A stretch of DNA of 40,000 bases from an uncultured Candidatus Peribacteria bacterium (GCA_964466055.1 CAYXLW010000008.1:820-40819), one strand, 5' to 3'; positions 1 through 29,574 are shown, numbered from the stretch's first letter. Translations and numbers: made by a program. The notes: a model not told the origin generated them from the sequence alone.

Positions 1-93
1 GCACAACACGGCATATCTGGTTTCGCTACGCTTCACCCAAATTTACTTTCCGCTACGCTTCAAGTAAACTTCAGATATCCTGAAACGTTGTGC
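1..93 (+). repeat. Imperfect-hairpin element A (attC-like candidate), truncated or starting at the window edge
   Basis: GCACAAC(1-7) pairs with GTTGTGC(87-93) and ATATCTG(13-19) with CAGATAT(72-78). An inner stem TTTAC/GTAAA is also present. The same element recurs in direct orientation at 6435-6531. Confidence 0.6.
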
Positions 94-96
94 GAC

Positions 97-171
97 ATAT
101 TTTTCAATATTTTTTCTCAAATAGAAATTTTGTTGAAGAATTTAAAAAAGGAATGGAATTTTTATTTTTTT
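97..171 (+). repeat. Left arm of a ~75-bp inverted repeat (partner 6305-6378)
   Basis: Three collinear exact blocks (tatttttcaatattttt, attttgttgaagaattt, ggaatttttatttttt) match the reverse complement of 6305-6378. Confidence 0.6.
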
Positions 172-176
172 ATTTT

Positions 177-204
177 AATGAGGGGGATATAATGAGGGGG
201 ATAT
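177..204 (+). repeat. Perfect tandem duplication of a 14-bp unit AATGAGGGGGATAT upstream of mod
   Basis: Units at 177-190 and 191-204 are identical. Each contains GAGGGGG followed by ATG AGG GGG ATA TAA. Confidence 0.8.
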
Positions 205-292
205 AAGGTGTTTTCTCCGCTCCGCTACGAAAACGATTTATTTATAAGGGGAAAACGAATATAATACAATTACTTAACTTGGATATAAAACT

Positions 293-2806
293 ATGGCTAC
301 TATAAACGAAAACAAATTCTACTCTGCACTTGAAAATATCTTCACAGGTGCAAATATTGAAGGTGAGAGTGGCTATGTAAATCTTCTCAAGATTAAATCG
401 AGTTATTACAAATTGATTTTAGAGCAATTCAAAAAAGATGTAGATAATGAGAAGATAATCACTGATTCATTCAAGGAAGAGTTTTTTGACAAGCTGTATT
501 CTTTTTTTGAGAAATATTTTAGTGAAAGCGGAAGTGTATATTTTGTGAAAACTGCAAACTGGCAAAGAGTGTATGAACAGGTTTATACAGACAATAAAGA
601 TGTCGTCCTGTTTTGGAAAACGCACATGCTGTATTATGTGAAGTCAGATATTTTATTTCAAAGTATTGATGTAGAGATAGAAGACGAGGAAAGCAAGCAG
701 AAATACAATTTTTATTTTGATGTAGGCAGTTTACAAGCCAAGCAAAACAATGAGAAAAAGTCTCTGGTATTTACTTTTCGTGAAATCACAGAAGAAAAAA
801 ACAGCGAAGAAGTCTTGAATGAAAAGCAAGGCAAGAAAACCTTTGTTTTTGATGTGGCGTATAGCGAAAAGGGGAACAAAACAAAAATTGACGATCTCGT
901 AAAGCAAACAAAAATTCCTGAACAAATCATCGAAAAGGCTTTTGCGACTTTTAGAAAACAAAGTGAGGTTGATTTCTTTATCAACAAAAATGCCGAGAAG
1001 TTTTTGACCGAACAGCTTGATATGTATTTGCATCAAATCTTACTTCATGAAGAAAACAAGTTTGAGCAAAAAAGACTCGATCAAATCAAGACGATCAAAA
1101 TCTTTGCGAATAAAATTATTAAGTTTATTGCTCAGTTTGAGGATGAGCTGGTGAGAATTTGGAACAAGCCAAAGTTTGCCCTTGGTTCAAATTATGTGAT
1201 TACGATTGATAAACTTTCAAAAGAGATACTGGAAAAAATTGCCAAGCACAAAAATCTCAAGGAACAAATCAAGGAATGGCAAGATTTAGGCATGATTGAT
1301 GAAAGTTTTAATTTTGCAAAAAGAGAAGAGAAGCACAAATATTTGCCGATAGATACGAAGTATTTCAAGGACTTGGAAATGGAAATTTTAGGTTTGTTTG
1401 ATGATATTGATGAGGCTTTGGATGGAAGGCTTATTCATAGTGAAAACTATCAGGCTTTGAATACTTTGTCAGAAAAATACAAAGAAAAAGTACAGTGTGT
1501 TTATATTGATCCACCGTTTAATCTTGGACAAAATGCAGACTTTGATTACAAAGTAAATTACAAAGATGCAAACTGGGCAACGCTTTTAGAAAATAGATTA
1601 AGATTTGCTCACAAGCTCTTATCAGATACTGGAAGCATTTTTGTTAGATGTGATTATAATGGAAATTTTATTGTAAGATGTTTGCTTAATGAGATTTTTG
1701 GAAAAGAGAATTTTAGAAATGAGATAATCGTAAGCAAATCAGCCAAATTAACAGAAAAAATAAATCGTTATCATAGTGGACATGATTCTTTGTTTTTGTA
1801 TTCCAAAAGTGATAATTATCATTTTGAAACTCAAAATAAAGAAAGAGTAAAAAGAAATTGGAGAGGAATGCATCTGCCAGGTATAAGATGGTCACCAATA
1901 AAAGAAGAATATTTAAATCTGTATTCAAAAGAAAATATTCAATATAAAAATAACAAACCTTCTACGAGAGCAAGAATTATTTTAGGTAGGGAATTATTGC
2001 CTCCTGGAGATAGACACTGGGCATTAAATCAGGAAAGTATTTTTGAGCTCGAAAAAGAAAATGGTATTATTTGGGAAAGCAATGAACCTAAATCATTAGA
2101 AGGAAGTGAACAAAAATTAACGGATAATTGGACGGATTGGGTAGGATATTCATCAGATTGGGGATTTTCTACAGAGAATCATGAAAAAGTCTTAGAAAGG
2201 TCTATTCAAACAGCAACACAAGGAAATGATCTTGTTTTAGATTTCTTTGCAGGAAGTGCAACAACACAAGCAGTATCTCAAAAATTTGGCAGAAAATGGC
2301 TTGGAGTAGAAATGGGGGATCAATTTTTTAATGTAGATTTACCAAGACTTAAACAGGTTATTTTTGGAAAACAGAGTGGGATAAGCAAAGATTTAAAGGA
2401 AAAATATAAAGGTGGTGGGTTTTTCAAATACTACTCCCTCGAACAATACGAAGACACACTCCGCAATATGCAATACAAAGACTACAATCAAAACACTCTT
2501 TTTGCGACCGAAAAGAAAACCTTTGAGCAATATGTCTTTTATGCCGATCAAAAATTTGCTCATGTCTTGGAAGTAAACAAAGAAAAATTAGAAATAGATT
2601 TTGACAAACTCTATCCAAATATTGACTTTGCCGAGACAATCTCAAACCTGCTCGGAATGCCGATCAAAAAAATCACAAAAACAAGTGTCGTTCTTCAAGA
2701 CGGAGAAAGCGAAAGAGAGATTAAGACAAATTATAAAAATATGAATAGTGAAGAGAAACTGGCTTTTTTGAGGTTACTCAAACCTTTGCTTTGGTGGGGA
2801 AATTAA
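293..2806 (+). CDS. mod: Type III restriction-modification methyltransferase (Mod-like, beta-class amino-MTase) with a long N-terminal extension
   Basis: Motif IV is VYIDPPFN (about nt 1499-1522). It precedes motif I DLVLDFFAGSATT (about nt 2228-2266), giving the IV-TRD-I order. The gene is followed 24 nt later by a Res-like helicase-nuclease. Confidence 0.8.
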   Translation: MATINENKFYSALENIFTGANIEGESGYVNLLKIKSSYYKLILEQFKKDVDNEKIITDSFKEEFFDKLYSFFEKYFSESGSVYFVKTANWQRVYEQVYTDNKDVVLFWKTHMLYYVKSDILFQSIDVEIEDEESKQKYNFYFDVGSLQAKQNNEKKSLVFTFREITEEKNSEEVLNEKQGKKTFVFDVAYSEKGNKTKIDDLVKQTKIPEQIIEKAFATFRKQSEVDFFINKNAEKFLTEQLDMYLHQILLHEENKFEQKRLDQIKTIKIFANKIIKFIAQFEDELVRIWNKPKFALGSNYVITIDKLSKEILEKIAKHKNLKEQIKEWQDLGMIDESFNFAKREEKHKYLPIDTKYFKDLEMEILGLFDDIDEALDGRLIHSENYQALNTLSEKYKEKVQCVYIDPPFNLGQNADFDYKVNYKDANWATLLENRLRFAHKLLSDTGSIFVRCDYNGNFIVRCLLNEIFGKENFRNEIIVSKSAKLTEKINRYHSGHDSLFLYSKSDNYHFETQNKERVKRNWRGMHLPGIRWSPIKEEYLNLYSKENIQYKNNKPSTRARIILGRELLPPGDRHWALNQESIFELEKENGIIWESNEPKSLEGSEQKLTDNWTDWVGYSSDWGFSTENHEKVLERSIQTATQGNDLVLDFFAGSATTQAVSQKFGRKWLGVEMGDQFFNVDLPRLKQVIFGKQSGISKDLKEKYKGGGFFKYYSLEQYEDTLRNMQYKDYNQNTLFATEKKTFEQYVFYADQKFAHVLEVNKEKLEIDFDKLYPNIDFAETISNLLGMPIKKITKTSVVLQDGESEREIKTNYKNMNSEEKLAFLRLLKPLLWWGN

Positions 2807-2829
2807 TTTAAAACTTGCAGAATTAACTT

Positions 2830-5664
2830 ATGAAAAATACTTTAGAAAAAATTATCGAAGAAAAAAGCTATGACGATCTTGGATTGTGGTGCTTGCCAAA
2901 CCTTGCCAAATTTTCAGAAATTAAAACACTTTATGAATACCAAAGAAACGCCCTTAAAAATATAACCAAAGTCTTACATTTATATTTTGAATCAGAAGAC
3001 GGAAAGAAGGCTTTATTTGAAGAATACAAAAAACATGGACTTGATAATAAAGATTATGCCGTTGAGAAGTTTTTATCTCGTACAGATAAACAAAATGGCT
3101 TAATAAACAAAAGATTTTCTTTTTTTCAAAACCATTTCCGAACGCTTGGAAGCTATGACGAAGAGCATATTTCAGGAAGTAATTTCTTAAATCGTGCTTG
3201 CTTTTGGATGGCGACAGGAAGCGGAAAAAGTCTTGTTTTGATTAAAACTATTGAGCTTTTGGATTATCTAATGAGTCAAGGACTGATACCAAAAAAAGAA
3301 ATAATGCTTTTACTTCCTCGTGAAGACCTGATCAAGCAATTTACCAAAGAAATTGAAAGTTTTAATAAAAGCAAAGAAAGAAAAATTGAGCTGGTAAACT
3401 TAAAAGATTATGAAGATGACAAACAGGGATTTGCTTTTGATTATAGTATTAAGGTTTATTATTACAGAAGCGACCTCATAAGAGACGAGAGAAAAGAAAA
3501 TATCCTTGATTATCGAAGCTATGAAAATAATGGTGATTGGTATGTATTTTTAGACGAAGCACACAGAGGAAGTAAAGAAGATTCACTCATGCAAGATTAT
3601 GTCGCTATTCTTTCAAAGAATGGATTTTTATTTAATTTCTCAGCGACTTTCACCGATAGCATTGACTATGTTACGACTTGCTTCAATTTTAATCTCGAAA
3701 AATTCATATTGGCAGGATATGGCAAAAATCTTTATTTGAGTAATTCATATTTTGACTTTACCAAAGACAAAGATGATTTCTCGGAAAGAGATAAACAAAA
3801 ACAGGTTTTAAAATCCTTGATCGTGTTTAGCTTTGTCAAAAAAGCAAAAAATGAGCAAACCTATCATCATCCTTTACTCATAACGCTCGTAAATTCTATC
3901 AATACCGATGATGCGGATTTACTTTTATTTTTCAAAAAATTAGAAGAAATAGCGAGTGGGAAAATTGATGAAAAACTCTTTACAGAAACCAAAGAAGAGA
4001 TTTTGAATGATCTAAGAAATCATAAATCTTTTGTTTTTGGCGATGAAGTATTGGATTTTGATCTAAATATTGTAGAAAAGATCACGCAAAAGAATATATT
4101 TGAGCAAGTCTTTAATGCTTCGAATTATGGGAAAATAGAGATATTGGAAGGCGAAAAAGGCAAAGAAATAGTTTTAAAACTTGAAACCAGTGAAAAGCCT
4201 TTTGCACTCATTAAAATCGGAGATGCAAAGAAATTTCAAAGAGAACAACTTGGAAGTAATTATACCTTTATCACAAGCTTTGATTCTAAAAAATACTTTG
4301 AACATATCAATAAAAGCGAAGATATAAATCTATTACTTGGAAGTAGAAGTTTTTATGAAGGTTGGGATTCAAATCGTCCAAATGTGATTAATATGATTAA
4401 TATTGGGAAAAAGGATGCAAAGAAGTTTGTTTTGCAGGGAATAGGAAGAGGGATAAGAATCGAGCCACACAAAGGCGAACGAAAAAGACTACCTCAAAAT
4501 CATGCAGATAAAAATGTATTACTTGAAACCTTGTTTGTATTTGCGACTGACAAGAACGCAGTCAAAGCAATTATAGAGACAGTAGAAAATGAAAAAGACA
4601 CAGACGAGGTGGAAATATCACTTTTTGAGAATCAAAATAAACCCTTTGATCTTCTTATTCCTGTCTATAAAGAAGAGGAAGCTAGAGGGAAAATTTCAAA
4701 ATTTAATATTGAAAAAGAGAGCTTAGAGCGATTTGAAAATTACATACATTCTTTTGATATTGATACTTTGCTTGCCAAAACAGCCATATCTCAAAAAGAC
4801 CTTGAATTTTTGTTAAATGAAATTGAAAACAAGAATCTTTTTCAAATAAAAGAAGAAAATGTTTATAGCGATATGGATTTGCTTTTGCAAAGAATCACAA
4901 ATCATATTTCTGTAAAAAATAAGGTTGTCTCAGGTATAAAGGAAGTAACCGACGAAATAATCCATTTCAAACATATCAAAGTAGTAAATTTTAGTGATGA
5001 AGAAATTGGATCATTCAAGGATAAAATTCAGAAAGTGAAAGATTTTGAAGCAATAGACAAAAAAGAAATTGCACTCAAGTTTGCAAAAGGAGAAATCGAT
5101 GAAAAAGAGTTTAACAATCGAGTAAATGCGACAAGTGAAGAGTCTTTCAAAGACCTGAAAATCAAAAAAATTGCAGAGCATTATTATTTACCTCTCATCT
5201 ATTCAGATGAAGAAAAGGTAGAATATATCAAGCACATTATCGAAGTGAAAAGCGAAGTAACTTTTATTAAAAATTTAGAAAAACATATCAAAGAAAACAA
5301 GCCTGATTGCGAATGGATGTTTAGTAAGATAGACCAAAGTCTTGATACTTTTCACATTCCGTACTTTTACAAGAAAGATAATATTTATCGAAAATTCTTT
5401 CCTGATTTTATTTTTTGGATTAAAAAAGGAAATGAATACAAAATCATTTTCATTGATCCAAAAGGTACAAGCAATGCAGATTATCAAAATAAAGTTGATG
5501 AATTTGAAAAGCTGTTTTTAGAAAATGGAAAATCTAAAACCTTTGAGTACAAAAAATTTGAAATAACTTTTGATTTAAAACTTGTTGCTCAAGATGTGAA
5601 CACAGTAAGTGATAAATATGATAAGTATTGGTTTGGAAATGAAGATTTTAACTTTTTGGGATAA
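2830..5664 (+). CDS. res: Type III restriction enzyme Res subunit (SF2 helicase plus C-terminal PD-(D/E)xK nuclease)
   Basis: Contains Walker A WMATGSGKS, DEAH box LDEAHRG, FSATF and QGIGRGIRI. The C-terminal FFPDF...IFIDPKG fits PD..(D/E)xK. It is co-oriented with mod. Confidence 0.8.
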   Translation: MKNTLEKIIEEKSYDDLGLWCLPNLAKFSEIKTLYEYQRNALKNITKVLHLYFESEDGKKALFEEYKKHGLDNKDYAVEKFLSRTDKQNGLINKRFSFFQNHFRTLGSYDEEHISGSNFLNRACFWMATGSGKSLVLIKTIELLDYLMSQGLIPKKEIMLLLPREDLIKQFTKEIESFNKSKERKIELVNLKDYEDDKQGFAFDYSIKVYYYRSDLIRDERKENILDYRSYENNGDWYVFLDEAHRGSKEDSLMQDYVAILSKNGFLFNFSATFTDSIDYVTTCFNFNLEKFILAGYGKNLYLSNSYFDFTKDKDDFSERDKQKQVLKSLIVFSFVKKAKNEQTYHHPLLITLVNSINTDDADLLLFFKKLEEIASGKIDEKLFTETKEEILNDLRNHKSFVFGDEVLDFDLNIVEKITQKNIFEQVFNASNYGKIEILEGEKGKEIVLKLETSEKPFALIKIGDAKKFQREQLGSNYTFITSFDSKKYFEHINKSEDINLLLGSRSFYEGWDSNRPNVINMINIGKKDAKKFVLQGIGRGIRIEPHKGERKRLPQNHADKNVLLETLFVFATDKNAVKAIIETVENEKDTDEVEISLFENQNKPFDLLIPVYKEEEARGKISKFNIEKESLERFENYIHSFDIDTLLAKTAISQKDLEFLLNEIENKNLFQIKEENVYSDMDLLLQRITNHISVKNKVVSGIKEVTDEIIHFKHIKVVNFSDEEIGSFKDKIQKVKDFEAIDKKEIALKFAKGEIDEKEFNNRVNATSEESFKDLKIKKIAEHYYLPLIYSDEEKVEYIKHIIEVKSEVTFIKNLEKHIKENKPDCEWMFSKIDQSLDTFHIPYFYKKDNIYRKFFPDFIFWIKKGNEYKIIFIDPKGTSNADYQNKVDEFEKLFLENGKSKTFEYKKFEITFDLKLVAQDVNTVSDKYDKYWFGNEDFNFLG

Positions 5665-5666
5665 TT

Positions 5667-6095
5667 ATGAAATACACAAAAACTCAAATAGATGAATATT
5701 TTAGCGATTATATCAAAGCAAATGAACAAGCTATAAAGTCTCGTTTGGAATTTTTGCTTGAACATTACACAGAACAAGATCAAGTAATTTCTCCAGATGT
5801 TTATTATTGTTTTAAAGAAGCAAGACATACATATATGATGGGAGATTTTGTCGCTTGTATTATTATGTGTGCTGTAGTATTGGAAAGACGATTAGCTAAG
5901 CTATTAGAATTTCCTGTCTATGATCCAACAGATGAAAAATCAGCATTATCTGAAACAGGATATAAAATCTTGAAACCTGCTTTTGAAAAAAACATCATAA
6001 ACCAAAAAATGTTTAAAGAATTAGAAAAATTATTTGAATTGAGAAATAATTATGTTCATGGAGTAAGTAAAGAAAATCCAAAAGATAAAAAATGA
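5667..6095 (+). CDS. HEPN-domain protein (DUF4145-like), third gene of the R-M operon; the frame stays open past the TGA to 6251
   Basis: It starts 3 nt after the res stop. It carries an Rx4H motif, ELRNNYVHG (R 6042-6044, H 6057-6059), and an upstream AVVLERRLAKLL helix typical of DUF4145/HEPN. The in-frame TGA at 6093 is followed by 51 sense codons. Confidence 0.55.
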   Translation: MKYTKTQIDEYFSDYIKANEQAIKSRLEFLLEHYTEQDQVISPDVYYCFKEARHTYMMGDFVACIIMCAVVLERRLAKLLEFPVYDPTDEKSALSETGYKILKPAFEKNIINQKMFKELEKLFELRNNYVHGVSKENPKDKK

Positions 6096-6254
6096 ACAAG
6101 ACCACAAATGAAAGATCCGATAAAACATGCTTTTGTATGTACAGATAAAGACTATGGAAAGGAATTAGAAGACGATGCACAATTTGCTATTAAAATATTA
6201 TTTAGAGCTTGGGAAGAATTACATTATTCAAAATTAAACTATCACAAATAAGGT

Positions 6255-6303
6255 GTTTTTCTTTTTCCAATTCACCCCTAACCCCTCTTGGAAAAAGAAA
6301 AAC
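6255..6303. terminator. Strong hairpin (15-16 bp stem, 17-nt loop) closing the R-M/HEPN operon
   Basis: TTTTTCTTTTTCCAA (6256-6270) is the exact inverse complement of TTGGAAAAAGAAAAA (6288-6302). The hairpin lies just after the TAA at 6249-6251, not after the TGA at 6093. Confidence 0.55.
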
Positions 6304-6304
6304 G

Positions 6305-6378
6305 AAAAAATAAAAATTCCAAATAATGATAAAATTCTTCAACAAAATAATAAGGAATGAAAAAATATTGAAAAATAC
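6305..6378 (-). repeat. Right arm of the ~75-bp inverted repeat (partner 97-171)
   Basis: Its reverse complement shares three exact 16-17-nt blocks, in the same order, with 97-171. Confidence 0.6.
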
Positions 6379-6434
6379 GCTTCGGGGTCGTTGCACTTGA
6401 TTTTCTTCCGTTAACACTACAGAAAATCACCCTC

Positions 6435-6531
6435 GCACAACACAGTATATCTGGCTCGCTCCTGCCGTCGCTCGACCCATATTTGCCTCCGTTTCACTAC
6501 GGCAAACATCAGATATACTGAAACGTTGCCC
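6435..6531 (+). repeat. Imperfect-hairpin element B (attC-like candidate), a direct repeat of element A
   Basis: The 5' end is GCACAACACAGTATATCTGG and the 3' end is CAGATATACTGAAACGTTG. AGTATATCTG and CAGATATACT pair perfectly over 10 bp. The inner stem TTTGCC/GGCAAA replaces the TTTAC/GTAAA of element A. Confidence 0.6.
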
Positions 6532-6824
6532 CAAAAATAAAACAGAAAGTTAAGGTAAGATTCTCAATTACACCCTTAGAGGGAATAAGGTACTAGAACC
6601 CCTGTATTTTAAGCCCAAAACGCTTATTTTTTGAGTGTGTTTATCAAGAAATAATAGGACATAAAAATATTTTACTACCGCCCCTTCTCCATAGGTACAA
6701 GAGTCTATAACCTTTTTTAATAAGAATGGTATAAACAAGGGATTTAAAAAACAAAAAACACTCAAAAGTTCGAGTGTCCCTTCTCCTTAGGTATGCGGGT
6801 CATAGGGCAGAATGATGCCCCTTC
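6532..6824 (-). repeat. tRNA-trailer mosaic repeat, copy a (modules M1, M2, M5)
   Basis: Read on the minus strand from the tRNA-Gln 3' end, it starts with the AGGGGCAT..TGCCCTATGAC hairpin. It continues with ACACTCGAACTTTTGAGTGT plus a T-run, then AAATCCCTTGTTT and GCTTAAAATACAGGGGT. It is homologous to 14219 onward. Confidence 0.65.
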
Positions 6825-6899
6825 TGGCTGGGGTGGTAGGATTCGAACCTACGAATAACGGAGTCAAAGTCCGCTGCCTTACCACTTGGCGACACCCCA
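6825..6899 (-). tRNA. tRNA-Gln (anticodon UUG), CCA encoded
   Basis: The minus strand reads TGGGGTGTCGCCAAGTGGTAAGGCAGCGGACTTTGACTCCGT...GGTTCGAATCCTACCACCCCAGCCA. The anticodon loop is CTTTGAC. It closely resembles canonical bacterial tRNA-Gln. Confidence 0.9.
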
Positions 6900-8664: not shown

Positions 8665-8977
8665 AAGATCAGAAGGAATGGCCCAAATTATAGGAGAAAT
8701 AATTGCTCCTTTCGTTTATAAAATCCTAGATCCTGAAATATTTGGATTAGCAACTATTACGCATGTAAAAGTAAGTACAGATTTTAGCTTTGCTGATGTT
8801 TATATAAGTACAATGAAAAACAAAAAAGAACTGGAGGAAATTTTAAGGAAAAATGTATATCACATACAAAAAGAGCTTAATCAAAAACTTCAAAAGAAAA
8901 GAGTGCCTAAAATTCGTTTTAAAATAGATTTTACATCAGAATATGTTGATAAAATTTACTCAAAATTGAACGAATAA
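8657..8977 (+). CDS. rbfA: Ribosome-binding factor A
   Basis: MSKRSEGMAQIIGEIIAPFVYKILDPEIFGLATITHVKVSTDFSFADVYIS fits the RbfA N-terminus. I place the start at the ATG at 8657, which overlaps the murE stop. The longer 8531 ORF would overlap murE by 130 nt. Confidence 0.75.
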   Translation: MSKRSEGMAQIIGEIIAPFVYKILDPEIFGLATITHVKVSTDFSFADVYISTMKNKKELEEILRKNVYHIQKELNQKLQKKRVPKIRFKIDFTSEYVDKIYSKLNE

Positions 8978-9449: not shown

Positions 9450-10466
9450 TCAATATTTATTAAGAATACCAATAATATTATCTGTCATTTTATTAAACTC
9501 TTCTTTTGATTGCTTTAAATTTTCTTGTGTGCCTTTCACATTTTCAAATCCATCGTCAGGAACTAGATTAAAAATAGCTTTATTTTTTTCTTGTGCTAGT
9601 GGAGATAATTGACCATAGTCTTTTATTATAGCTAAAGGATTTTTCCAAGAACTTTCTACAAGTCCATTTTTACAATGCTTTTCCGATAAATACTCTTTTA
9701 CTGATTCAGGTATTTTTTTCATCCAACTAGCATTTGTCTTTATTGGTTTTTTCGCATATTGATTATATGAGTTAACAATATAACCAATAAATAACCCTTC
9801 TCCCCCTAAAACCTTATCTGATGTAATACCATTATTTTTTGCTAATGCTTTTCCTGTCATTTTCCAATTATTTTTCCAATCTTCAAAATTTACACCTAAA
9901 TTTTCTATCCCCTGTACAGAAAATGCATCTGGCATCAAAGGTGTAATAAAGTAATCTGAACCAAGAAAAATAATTCGATTTAATAGTCCTAAGGTTGGAG
10001 ATGTATCTATAATAAAAATGTCGATATCTTCTTCACTTCCTTTTTTATTTAAGAAACGATCAATAGCACTTGTACTAAAAAACCCTCGTTCTAAGCCTTG
10101 AGCAGCTTCTCCCCAAGAAGCAATTAAGGAATTTTCATAATTACTAAGCTTTAAGCTTCCTGGTAAAACTAATAGATTTTCAGAAATTTCTTGAAATTTA
10201 ATACTTGTATTTATATCACTTCCTCCTTCAATAATTCCCTTCAATACTCCATAAATGTTATCATCTTTCGGAGAAAATAAATGTTCCTCTAAAAAATAAT
10301 CACCTAAAGCAAGTGATGATAAATTGCACTGAGGGTCTAAATCTATTAAAACGGTTTTGTATCCCTTTTCAGCGAATTTAACAGCTGTATTATAAGATAG
10401 AGTAGTTTTTCCAACTCCACCTTTATTATTAAAAAAAACTAATTTTTTTGGTCTAGGAAATGTCAT
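9450..10466 (-). CDS. ParA/MinD-family P-loop ATPase with a C-terminal extension (orphan)
   Basis: Contains the deviant Walker A FFNNKGGVGKTT, DLDPQCNLS and IIDTSPTLG. At 338 aa it is longer than typical ParA, and no adjacent parB-like gene is present. Confidence 0.7.
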   Translation of the reverse strand: MTFPRPKKLVFFNNKGGVGKTTLSYNTAVKFAEKGYKTVLIDLDPQCNLSSLALGDYFLEEHLFSPKDDNIYGVLKGIIEGGSDINTSIKFQEISENLLVLPGSLKLSNYENSLIASWGEAAQGLERGFFSTSAIDRFLNKKGSEEDIDIFIIDTSPTLGLLNRIIFLGSDYFITPLMPDAFSVQGIENLGVNFEDWKNNWKMTGKALAKNNGITSDKVLGGEGLFIGYIVNSYNQYAKKPIKTNASWMKKIPESVKEYLSEKHCKNGLVESSWKNPLAIIKDYGQLSPLAQEKNKAIFNLVPDDGFENVKGTQENLKQSKEEFNKMTDNIIGILNKY

Positions 10467-14218: not shown

Positions 14219-14632
14219 ATAGGGGCATGATATTGCCCTATGACTCTAAAGGATAGGGCTTACGAACACTCGAACTTTTGAGTGTTTTTTTGATTATAAA
14301 ATCCCTTGTTTGTACCATTTTCATAAAAATTTATAGCAAAATGGTTCTATTTCTTAATACTTATAGTGAAGGGGCGTTATGAATTTTTTTCATATACCCA
14401 ATTTCTTTGTTTATTTTCAATAAAAAACAAGAGTTTTTAGCTTAAAATATAGGGGTGTGCTTCCCTAATACCTACTAAAACGCACACTAAGGGCTTATAA
14501 AAGACATTAACCTATCCAAAACTGACATCCCAACAAAGGGGTGTTTTTTGGTTATAAATTCCTTTAATGGCTACATAAAACGACAAAAAAGATGTTAAAA
14601 AGGTTCTAGTCCGTAAAGGTGGAGCCAGATAG
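14219..14632 (+). repeat. tRNA-trailer mosaic repeat, copy b (modules M1, M2, M3, M4)
   Basis: Starts with the same AGGGGCAT..TGCCCTATGAC hairpin, ACACTCGAACTTTTGAGTGT terminator hairpin, AAATCCCTTGTTT and GCTTAAAATATAGGGGT as after tRNA-Gln. It continues with CCCAACAAAGGGGTGTTTTTT, AAAAAGGTTCTAG and GCCAGATAG, which are shared with 19741-20030. Confidence 0.65.
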
Positions 14633-19740: not shown

Positions 19741-20105
19741 CTCCAAAAGTTCGAACTTGTTCTACGCACCCCAGCCAGATAGTGCACTAATGGCTATCCT
19801 AAGCCATAAACCTATGTAAATCGAGCACCCCAACAAAAGGGTGTTTTTTCGTTCAAAGAGCCTTTTGTGGCTTGTATGTGCCATTAAAAAGGTTCTAGGC
19901 CTATCCCCCTATGTATGTAGGACACTATTGGCAGTAGTAAAATATTTTTTGTAGCTTAATTTTTTTGATACAAATATTCAAAAAAATGATAACTTTTGCG
20001 CTTAAAATATAGGGGTTCTATTCTTCTTTATCCTTTATTTGTTTTGATAAATTTAGATATATTTTATCATATTTTTCACCTTAACTTATGTCTCATTTTC
20101 GTGAA
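19741..20105 (+). repeat. Mosaic repeat, copy c (tRNA-Gln 3' fragment, then M3, M2 and inverted M5)
   Basis: GTTCGAA(19749-19755)..CTAC.CACCCCAGCCAGA(19767-19779) copies the T-loop-to-CCA end of tRNA-Gln plus 2 trailer nt. CCCCAACAAAAGGGTGTTTTTT, AAAAAGGTTCTAG, GCAGTAGTAAAATATTTTT and GCGCTTAAAATATAGGGGT are shared with copies a and b. Confidence 0.6.
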
Positions 20106-28173: not shown

Positions 28174-28470
28174 ATGGAAAGTATAAAGAACATATATTTG
28201 GTTTCTAAATTTCTTTTTTTTAGCACGGGAAGTGTAATTTTTCTTCTAGCCTTTTTTTTAAGAAATGGATTTTTTACACATTACTCAAAATTTGGAATAC
28301 TCATTTTAGATGTACCTTTTCTTTTTTTTGGGCTTGTGTACCTTCTATCAAATATAAAAAAAGAAGAAGAGGAATATAATTCAGTAATGGAGGGGTTTAT
28401 TTCATTTTTTGGAATACTAATCTTTGCACTTATAGTATTTTTTCACTTTGCTTTTCCCGATTTAATCTAA
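28174..28470 (+). CDS. Small membrane protein (3 TM), unknown function
   Basis: A 98-aa ORF with three hydrophobic helices. Its 3' 178 nt are duplicated at 29397-29574. Confidence 0.5.
   Translation: MESIKNIYLVSKFLFFSTGSVIFLLAFFLRNGFFTHYSKFGILILDVPFLFFGLVYLLSNIKKEEEEYNSVMEGFISFFGILIFALIVFFHFAFPDLI
28292..28469 (+). repeat. 178-bp direct repeat, copy 1 (3' part of the 28174-28470 gene)
   Basis: Aligns without gaps to 29397-29574 with 11 mismatches. Confidence 0.85.
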
Positions 28471-29396: not shown

Positions 29397-29574
29397 TTGG
29401 AATACTCATTTTAGATCTACCTTTTCTTTTTTTTGGACTTGTCTATCTTCTATCAAATATAAAAAAAGAAGAAGAAGAATATAATTCAGTAATGGAAGGA
29501 TTTATTTCATTTTTCGGAATACTAATATTTTCACTTATAGTATTTTTCCACTTTGCTTTTCCCGATTTAATCTA
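29397..29574 (+). repeat. 178-bp direct repeat, copy 2 (orphaned 3' gene segment, no start codon)
   Basis: It keeps the open frame GILILDLPFLFFGLVYLL...FAFPDLI*. An in-frame TAA precedes it, and its stop overlaps the stop of the convergent carbamoyltransferase gene (CTAG). Confidence 0.85.

Follow-up and report, generated by a model that had tools for sequence, protein, structure and literature searches.

The first 6,531 nucleotides (nt) of a 40,000-nt stretch of DNA from an uncultured Candidatus Peribacteria bacterium (GCA_964466055.1, CAYXLW010000008.1:820-40819; hereafter the window) begin and end with copies of one structured site of about 100 nt in direct orientation, A (1-93) and B (6435-6531), which very probably serve as attC-type sites of recombination for a platform that captures genes in the manner of integrons, in bacteria of the candidate phyla radiation (CPR). 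An earlier note on the window had seen the same two elements and had suggested that they might be attC-like cassette boundaries; both are present, in direct orientation, and arrays of such sites, an adjoining tyrosine recombinase gene (int), covariation within the sites and junctions at GTT all speak for that suggestion. Comparison across loci shows the architecture of these arrays, selection for base pairing within the sites, their association with the recombinase and the GTT junctions: the cassettes appear as discrete units joined at the GTT of the R' box, and the R'' box of the site at the 3' end of each cassette is complementary to the bases with which that same cassette starts, as if the cassette had once been circular.

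Window position 1 corresponds to position 9709 of the source contig (L001), which was reached via the exact Mod protein. The parts of the two sites are as follows:

1-7, plus strand: site A, R'' box GCACAAC
8, plus strand: site A, single A after R''
9-19, plus strand: site A, L'' box CGGCATATCTG
72-82, plus strand: site A, L' box CAGATATCCTG
83-86, plus strand: site A, AAAC
87-93, plus strand: site A, R' box GTTGTGC, where cassette 2 starts, with the presumed crossover after G87
6435-6441, plus strand: site B, R'' box GCACAAC
6443-6453, plus strand: site B, L'' box CAGTATATCTG
6510-6520, plus strand: site B, L' box CAGATATACTG
6521-6524, plus strand: site B, AAAC
6525-6531, plus strand: site B (the final site of the array), R' box GTTGCCC

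Common to both is a layout of R'', one A, an 11-nt L'', a variable centre, an 11-nt L', AAAC, and GTT followed by four bases. By chance, 0.03 occurrences of the 19-nt 3' box would be expected in the window, where two are found. The similarity between A and B ends directly after GTTG, as previously described, and begins 2 nt 5' of window position 1 (tcGCACAAC, seen in L001), so that the start of the element is not created by the start of the window, their agreement being mere coincidence. With the covariance model CM R1, A scored 87.6 bits on L001 9703-9807 (72 bits when scored in the window alone, which truncates its 5' flank) and B 88.5 bits (E 6e-22). When the window and the upstream contig were searched with filters off, nothing beyond A and B reached E<0.2, and one weak match (E 0.21) coincided exactly with the attI candidate described below. 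Rfam, searched at gathering thresholds and at a permissive E-value, gave no family matching A or B.

Because the R' of an integron site contributes its last bases to the cassette that follows, one expects the R'' of a cassette to match the R' in front of that cassette. We compared the four variable R-box bases in 33 consecutive site pairs and determined that the reverse complement of R'' was a perfect match to the R' of the preceding site in 19 of 33 cases, but to the R' of its own site in only 2 of 33, with 9% of random pairs matching perfectly. All five comparisons within a six-site array (L012) were perfect (5/5), and in the window the R'' of B (GCACAAC) is the exact reverse complement of the R' of A (GTTGTGC), while it has two mismatches to its own R' (GTTGCCC). 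As far as comparison of sites can tell, this is the pattern of circular permutation that marks integron cassettes recombined at G|TT.

The insertion point shows the same boundary. An attI-like sequence (...TTCGTATAAWAACGA|GTTRNNYGAMAT) lies about 115 nt from the int start codon in 46 of 64 loci, where conservation extends on the left as far as GTT and gives way to variable sequence on the right. Of 21 loci, 13 have variable attI R' bases that match the reverse complement of the first R'' perfectly, and another 4 show a single mismatch. The putative attI is dif-like (TTCGTATAA-N6/7-GTTGTACGAAAT; the L001 copy lies at 8927-8951, between int and the array), and its core is palindromic, again in the manner of dif (TTCGTATAA-spacer-TTATACGAA). 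Furthermore, identical cassettes stand behind different neighbours, for example in L012, L027, L017 and L014, their identity breaking at GTT. The earlier note had asked where the breakpoints of cassette polymorphism lie relative to the hairpins; on the evidence of both the site pairs and the end of attI conservation, they fall at the GTT of the 3' box.

We scanned the species representatives of GTDB for the 3' box and obtained 30 loci, about 21 of which contain the whole element. All 21 full-element loci are metagenome-assembled genomes of CPR/Patescibacteria (Gracili-, Peregrini-, Peri-, Parcu-, Nomura-, Moranii- and Gottesmanbacteria, and Vampirococcus), and one complete Peribacteria genome holds several copies. 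A core-profile search of these 8-kb loci added more divergent copies. Within a locus the copies have a single orientation and a spacing of 0.5-3 kb, with co-oriented single open reading frames (ORFs) between them; thus the further copies sought on the advice of the earlier note do exist, as co-oriented arrays.

An independent set of 80 metagenome loci (L037-L116) was retrieved by the recombinase protein alone (63-83% identity; 350 relatives confirmed). These were scanned with a structure-only pattern, AAC-N-X11 ... rc(X11, <=2 mismatches)-N4-GTT, in which the sequence of the family enters solely through AAC, GTT and the spacer lengths. Upstream of int (179 kb), the pattern matched 53 times on the strand divergent from int and 3 times on the other strand; downstream (335 kb), it matched 4 times on the divergent strand and 0 times on the other. 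A covariance model trained on 40 diverse sites, with matches counted at E<=0.01, detected 87 sites in the 80 loci, all of them upstream of int and 86 on the divergent strand, and none in the 335 kb downstream. A site is present in 30 of the 32 loci that have at least 1.5 kb of sequence upstream of int, and L043 contains 14 sites. Two sites in L053 (462-551 and 563-664), 34 nt apart, form in effect an empty cassette. Among viral contigs (IMG/VR), neither the 3' box nor a close relative of the recombinase was found, and hence no sign of a phage-borne platform.

The 33 cassettes that could be delimited have a median length of 909 bp, and in 32 of them the longest ORF is on the strand of the site, which lies at the 3' end. 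Their Pfam matches are varied, with one member each (SDR, RidA, DarT, radical SAM, GNAT, solute symporter, AAA_21/AAA_15, HD and methyltransferases).

To assess the folded structure, we counted an R helix of 7 bp, an L helix of 11 bp and an inner helix of 8 bp (26 pairs). In an alignment of 40 sites, 90.7% of the cells are paired, where shuffles give 68.3% and slid partners 28-40%; covariation scores 0.56 compared with 0.15, and two-sided changes occur at 19 of the 26 pairs. For the 87 covariance-model sites, 88.9% are paired compared with 67.7%, with two-sided changes at 23 of 26 pairs. The inner helix, which played no part in site finding, is 92% paired, and 6 to 8 of its 8 pairs covary. Selection on structure, which the earlier note had deduced from two copies, is in this way supported across the site family: the compensatory changes between the inner stems of A and B (AAATTTAC/GTAAACTT vs ATATTTGCC/GGCAAACAT) are real and hold for the whole family, and so does the retained A.C mismatch. 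A stem of B described there as a perfect 10 bp has to be corrected, the middle stem of B being 11 bp and perfect. Folds of single sequences as single-stranded DNA were modest (z -1.0 to -3.5 vs shuffles), with the minus strand folding better than the plus strand, and we have for this reason drawn the structural support from covariation rather than from folding energy. The fold check proposed for both copies is consequently borne out by covariation across the family, and only modestly by energy.

In 86 scanned sites the L''/L' stem is an ungapped 11-bp duplex and no extrahelical L-box bases occur, although the scan itself demanded an ungapped stem. AAC and GTT are invariant across the 86 sites, and the textbook boxes R'' = RYYYAAC and R' = GTTRRRY are matched exactly in 17/86 and 16/86 of them. 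The two reservations that had been voiced about the boxes are well founded as properties of the family, which has a shifted consensus (RYAYAAC/GTTRTRY) and asymmetric spacers (1 nt vs 4 nt). The R boxes are flanked by TC...GAMAT, and the inner stem is conserved as CCCAWATT...AACWT with the fixed mismatch, which is A.C on the top strand and a G.T wobble on the bottom strand. Under DNA folding parameters, 77 of 86 sites are more stable as the bottom strand than as the top strand (median difference -1.95 kcal/mol, p = 5e-14). The 5' side, and it alone, has a segment of 20-50 nt separating L'' from the inner helix; in many subfamilies this segment is a hairpin of its own, making the centre a three-way junction.

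The window itself ends short of the recombinase gene, which the earlier note had proposed to look for on the contig and which is present just outside, 0.9 kb upstream of position 1:

L001 8000-8824, minus strand: Xer-like tyrosine recombinase of 274 aa, 884-1708 nt upstream of window position 1

Its true start is probably Met57 of the annotated ORF, because homologues have about 270-280 aa. Among NCBIfam models, it scored 216.2 bits with the integron integrase (TIGR02249; cut-off 265), 208 bits with XerA (cut-off 220), 190 bits with XerC (cut-off 335) and 185 bits with XerD (cut-off 330), and its best match in the PDB is XerA. In the alignment with VchIntIA (PDB 2a3v), 20 residues of the query (235-254) stand in place of 63 residues of IntI (183-245), so that the IntI-specific additional domain, around patch III, is missing (about 43 residues). 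Ghaly et al. 2022 (PMC9668308, citing Messier & Roy 2001) describe this domain as a defining trait of IntI and as necessary for integron-mediated recombination.

The recombinase family is large: of 8000 candidates scored, 6113 proteins, typically of 270 aa, matched at E<=1e-30, and where they are named at all, it is only as 'XerD' or 'tyrosine-type recombinase/integrase'. Identity to the query is 75-100% in the best 120 clusters, among which are entries labelled Moran-, Portnoy- and Gracilibacteria. Across CPR phyla, the recombinase is 75-87% identical, whereas the Obg protein, by which the host is Peregrinibacteria-like, has 62% identity to the closest relative with a name, from a Peregrinibacteria bacterium, and about 50% to other CPR bacteria, a disparity that suggests horizontal spread of the platform. 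More distant homologues (38-50% identity) lie divergently upstream of arrays in four loci (L025, L028, L030 and L036).

A large serine recombinase (L001 6641-7960) adjoins the tyrosine recombinase, and homologues of it (32-36% identity) are likewise its neighbours in at least 9 of the 80 loci (L041, L049, L052, L100, L102, L105, L110, L112 and L113); the platform as a whole may be carried by a larger integrative element.

Several points weigh against reading A and B as attC-type sites of such a platform. For cassette 1, the R'' of A has one mismatch to the attI R' (C.A on the top strand, G.T on the bottom strand). The TIGR02249 score of the recombinase is under the cut-off, and since the additional domain is absent, catalysis on folded sites by a 274-aa enzyme is an extrapolation. 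A lone site in L074 (453-606) lies on the strand of the recombinase, the only such case among the 87. As to the structure, the L stems were partly pre-selected for complementarity by the site scan, and the covariance-model alignment is biased towards the structure of the model. Finally, the case is built wholly on comparative sequence analysis.

Among the alternatives that we considered, a canonical integron overlooked by annotation, with a divergent IntI and ordinary attC sites, would have the identical architecture of int, attI, attC and cassettes and the identical G|TT permutation, and TIGR02249 is indeed the top NCBIfam match of the recombinase. We nevertheless regard it as improbable: the additional-domain residues are absent in comparison with VchIntIA, the family is uniformly about 270 aa in length, the TIGR02249 score does not reach the cut-off and equals that of XerA, and the sites combine a lack of extrahelical bases with a 1/4-nt spacer and a shifted R-box consensus.

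If, instead, the enzyme were the single housekeeping Xer of the host with an adjacent dif, as in XerS/difSL, the cassettes would resemble integrative mobile elements exploiting Xer (IMEX) that accumulate at dif by way of a folded hairpin, like the CTX phage. An attI that is a dif-like palindrome at a fixed distance of about 115 nt from the gene, an enzyme of the size and likeness of Xer, and the great abundance of its family in CPR bacteria are what this would predict. A housekeeping role fits poorly, however, with the contrast between recombinase and Obg identities, which points to horizontal spread, with a second Xer-like gene in L036, and with the serine recombinase and phage-like genes that often flank the recombinase, and we therefore hold it to be less probable still. 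Even so, the mechanism would remain cassette capture at a hairpin site.

Two alternatives that would dispense with the recombinase or replace it are barely credible. The earlier note had left room for a dispersed repeat (a miniature inverted-repeat transposable element, MITE, or a repetitive extragenic palindrome, REP) or for transcription terminators with no role in mobility, and sites that are hairpin-forming, multi-copy and 3' of ORFs could look like either; this option falls with the strict position and orientation of the sites relative to int (87/87 on one side, 86/87 on one strand), with the lack of a T-run after A or B, neither of which was called terminator-like, and with the complementarity of each R'' to the preceding R', which termination or MITE insertion leaves unexplained. 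Single-strand transposon ends of the IS200/IS605 type, acted upon by an HUH (Y1) transposase, would likewise bear subterminal hairpins in direct orientation, with similarity stopping at a fixed tetranucleotide, but no TnpA or TnpB is found among the genes called in the window and the 10 kb upstream, the arrays have shared boundaries rather than paired left and right ends, and the constant neighbour is a tyrosine recombinase. We also rejected att sites of the adjacent prophage-like region (no third copy in the 9.7 kb upstream, and a misfit of the conserved-variable-conserved pattern and the covariation with a recent attL/attR pair) and a noncoding RNA gene or cis-regulatory leader (ruled out by the array organisation and the R''/R' permutation).

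For the reading that we favour, attC-type sites served by the neighbouring recombinase, we propose a mechanism by analogy with IntI and with XerCD acting on the CTX phage. The site would fold as single-stranded DNA, preferably from the bottom strand, and R''/R' and L''/L' would form two recombinase-binding duplexes around the unpaired 1-nt/4-nt spacer, mimicking the double-stranded, dif-like attI core. The recombinase would then exchange one strand pair at G|TT, and replication would resolve the intermediate. In this way, like IntI, it would excise cassettes (attC x attC) and bring them in at attI (attI x attC). Extrahelical bases read by the additional domain of IntI cannot set the choice of strand, because both are absent; that choice may instead be set by the asymmetry between A.C (top) and G.T (bottom), together with the one-sided central branch. 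That we are dealing with a widespread and horizontally spreading CPR integron, which has a minimal Xer-like integrase without the additional domain, achieves strand choice through the wobble/mismatch asymmetry and a branched centre, and represents either an intermediate between Xer/dif systems and integrons or an independent invention, seems to us a somewhat better than even proposition.

The layout of the locus in L001 is, judged by gene order and sites, that of an integron with two cassettes: the recombinase (minus strand), a 116-nt gap, GTTGTACGAAAT, an Ltp gene (plus strand), A, the genes mod, res and HEPN-like (plus strand), B, and the trailer of tRNA-Gln (minus strand). Continuing 5' of the window, the order towards A is phage-like genes (a ParB-methylase, a weak terminase match and a GIY-YIG gene), the large serine recombinase, the tyrosine recombinase (minus strand) and the Ltp-type lipoprotein gene (plus strand). 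The cassettes and their contents, including a type III restriction-modification (R-M) system, are listed here:

upstream of the window, 855 bp, plus strand: cassette 1, Ltp lipoprotein, with site A as its 3' end
88-6525, 6438 bp, plus strand: cassette 2, type III R-M and HEPN-like genes, from the TT of the R' of A to the G of the R' of B
94-292, plus strand: AT-rich cassette leader, of which bases 97-176 are an inverted-repeat arm
211-234, plus strand: leader hairpin GTTTTC-TCCGCTCCGCTAC-GAAAAC
293-2806, plus strand: mod, type III DNA methyltransferase (PADLOC MTase_III, 836 bits; Pfam N6_N4_Mtase)
2830-5664, plus strand: res, type III restriction helicase-nuclease subunit (Pfam ResIII, SWI2_SNF2, DEAD)
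5667-6251, plus strand: HEPN-like gene, interrupted in frame by a TGA (6093-6095), which leaves ORFs of 142 aa and 47 aa
6290-6434, plus strand: conserved 5' extension of site B, with an inverted AT-rich module (6299-6380), a GTTGCACT motif and a hairpin GATTTTC...GAAAATC
6545-6899, minus strand: tRNA-Gln (6825-6899) and its trailer of about 280 nt, the chromosomal flank of the array (ARAGORN and Rfam)

Cassette 2 is the largest of the cassettes delimited, which agrees with the reservation, already raised, that it is large for an integron (6.4 kb, with the median at 909 bp). Just inside hairpins A and B lies an AT-rich inverted repeat of about 80 nt (97-176 vs 6299-6380; also 188-258). The forward AT-rich leader recurs at the 5' ends of cassettes or beside attI in L015, L023, L027, L088, L081, L111 and others; a promoter scan of it gave no signal beyond shuffle expectation. 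The 5' extension of site B (about 140 nt) recurs with 92-97% identity upstream of sites in L008, L017, L023 and L026, and its first 109 nt alone are found in L015 (96% identity); these five loci carry the inverted module copy and the extension with the GTTGCACT motif and hairpin before a site. Both arms of the inverted repeat are present in L015 and L023, which have multi-gene defence cassettes. We considered whether the two arms are terminal inverted repeats of a transposon and rejected this: no target-site duplication was found for the pair, and the arms recur in large cassettes as a leader/trailer module that lies within the attC boundaries.

In many loci, the loops of several different hairpins are formed by a motif rich in CGCT (TCCGCTAYCGCTAC and its variants), which in the window lies at 22-33, 51-62 and 217-230. 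The hairpins concerned are those of the variable centre of the sites, of the 5' extension and of the leader, and the motif may bind a protein or nucleate hairpins. In an independent sample (SRR7760392), the window sequence recurs unchanged but in pieces, the contigs L002 and L005 ending at window positions 160, 6273 and 6462, that is, within the leader, just before the trailer module and within site B, as expected if these three are multi-copy or polymorphic in the population.

The earlier note had called the third gene HEPN, and we determined that this holds for the fold, weakly, and not for an intact ORF. The product has an Rx4H motif (LRNNYVHG), and an AlphaFold2 model of a full-length homologue (predicted local distance difference test score 80) gave Foldseek matches that are nearly all HEPN proteins, albeit weak ones (E 0.16-1, probability up to 0.93); the model thus makes a HEPN identity plausible, not firm. 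In L119 the same gene stands at the end of a type I R-M cassette, with a site scoring 68 bits behind it. The homologues have 189-194 aa, and all close ones have Gly at the position of the TGA in the window. The host reads TGA as a stop codon. In Gracilibacteria and Absconditabacteria, UGA encodes Gly, and these lineages carry the same site family; the TGA at 6093-6095 is therefore either a GGA>TGA nonsense mutation or the mark of a cassette imported from a code-25 lineage. Since the same sites occur in genomes with UGA = Gly and in genomes with UGA = stop, the platform may move cassettes between different genetic codes.

In L117 (3960-4020), the same Res and HEPN-like genes are followed by only the 5' half of the site (CGGGACACACAACAG...) and then by unrelated phage-like genes, which looks like a truncated cassette end. 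On the other side of site B, the trailers of tRNA-Gln (minus strand, 6545-6824) and of a tRNA-Glu (plus strand, 14219-14500), each of about 280 nt, are paralogous (about 70-75% identity) and share a GGGGCAT...TGCCCT hairpin and a terminator, the similarity reaching almost to site B. The window also contains an 88-nt repeat (14485-14572 vs 19785-19872), with a terminator-like end on the copy at 19785, and a 178-nt direct repeat (28292-28469 vs 29397-29574; 94% identity, 1105 nt apart) that is seemingly unrelated to the cassette sites.

Among known systems, integrons (IntI, attI and attC, including the sedentary chromosomal ones with sequence-conserved attC sites, such as the Vibrio cholerae repeats) are closest. 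Shared with them are a divergent tyrosine recombinase and, beside it, attI; an array in which the ORFs are mostly single and co-oriented, with an imperfect palindrome as the site behind each of them; R''...AAC and GTT...R' boxes with an L''/L' stem whose structure is kept by covariation; and the GTT crossover, a bottom-strand preference and an accessory or defence cargo. In contrast to integrons, the CPR platform has a recombinase of about 270 aa without the additional domain, 75-87% identical across phyla of CPR hosts, an L stem without extrahelical bases, a 1-nt/4-nt spacer, RYAYAAC/GTTRTRY boxes with their TC...GAMAT flanks, and a conserved inner stem with a fixed A.C mismatch and a one-sided branch. 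Taken alone, the 40-kb window resembles clusters of attC sites without an integrase (CALINs), but here the recombinase lies 0.9 kb beyond the window and elsewhere it is almost always beside the arrays.

With Xer/dif systems and their exploiters (CTX phage attP; XerS, XerH and XerA with an adjacent dif), the platform shares an Xer-like recombinase without an extra domain, a dif-like palindromic core beside the gene, and an incoming folded hairpin that would mimic a duplex site. It differs in moving gene cassettes of about 0.9 kb in long arrays, rather than phages, through one structured site family, and in a recombinase that is apparently horizontally mobile rather than housekeeping. The pdif modules of Acinetobacter plasmids are likewise discrete accessory-gene modules bounded by Xer-type sites; however, the XerC/XerD sites of pdif modules measure 28 bp, are double-stranded and alternate in orientation, unlike the co-oriented hairpins of about 100 nt described here, and pdif modules have no dedicated adjacent recombinase or attI.

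Integrons are defined by an IntI with the additional domain and by attC sites with extrahelical bases read by that domain. By its sequence features, then, the CPR platform appears integron-like, yet it fails on both of these defining features. In the literature that we searched, the coverage of which is incomplete, we found no description of integrons or integron-like arrays in CPR bacteria, and pipelines of the IntegronFinder type, which require the C-terminal profile of IntI, are expected to miss or misclassify these loci. If our reading is correct, the additional domain is not needed for cassette capture at hairpin sites, and the platform would be a concrete candidate for the origin of integrons from Xer/dif systems. 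CPR bacteria have tiny genomes, thought to be shaped by phage pressure, and they would harbour a large unannotated pool of mobile cassettes that includes defence systems, acetyltransferases, kinases, DarT and others.

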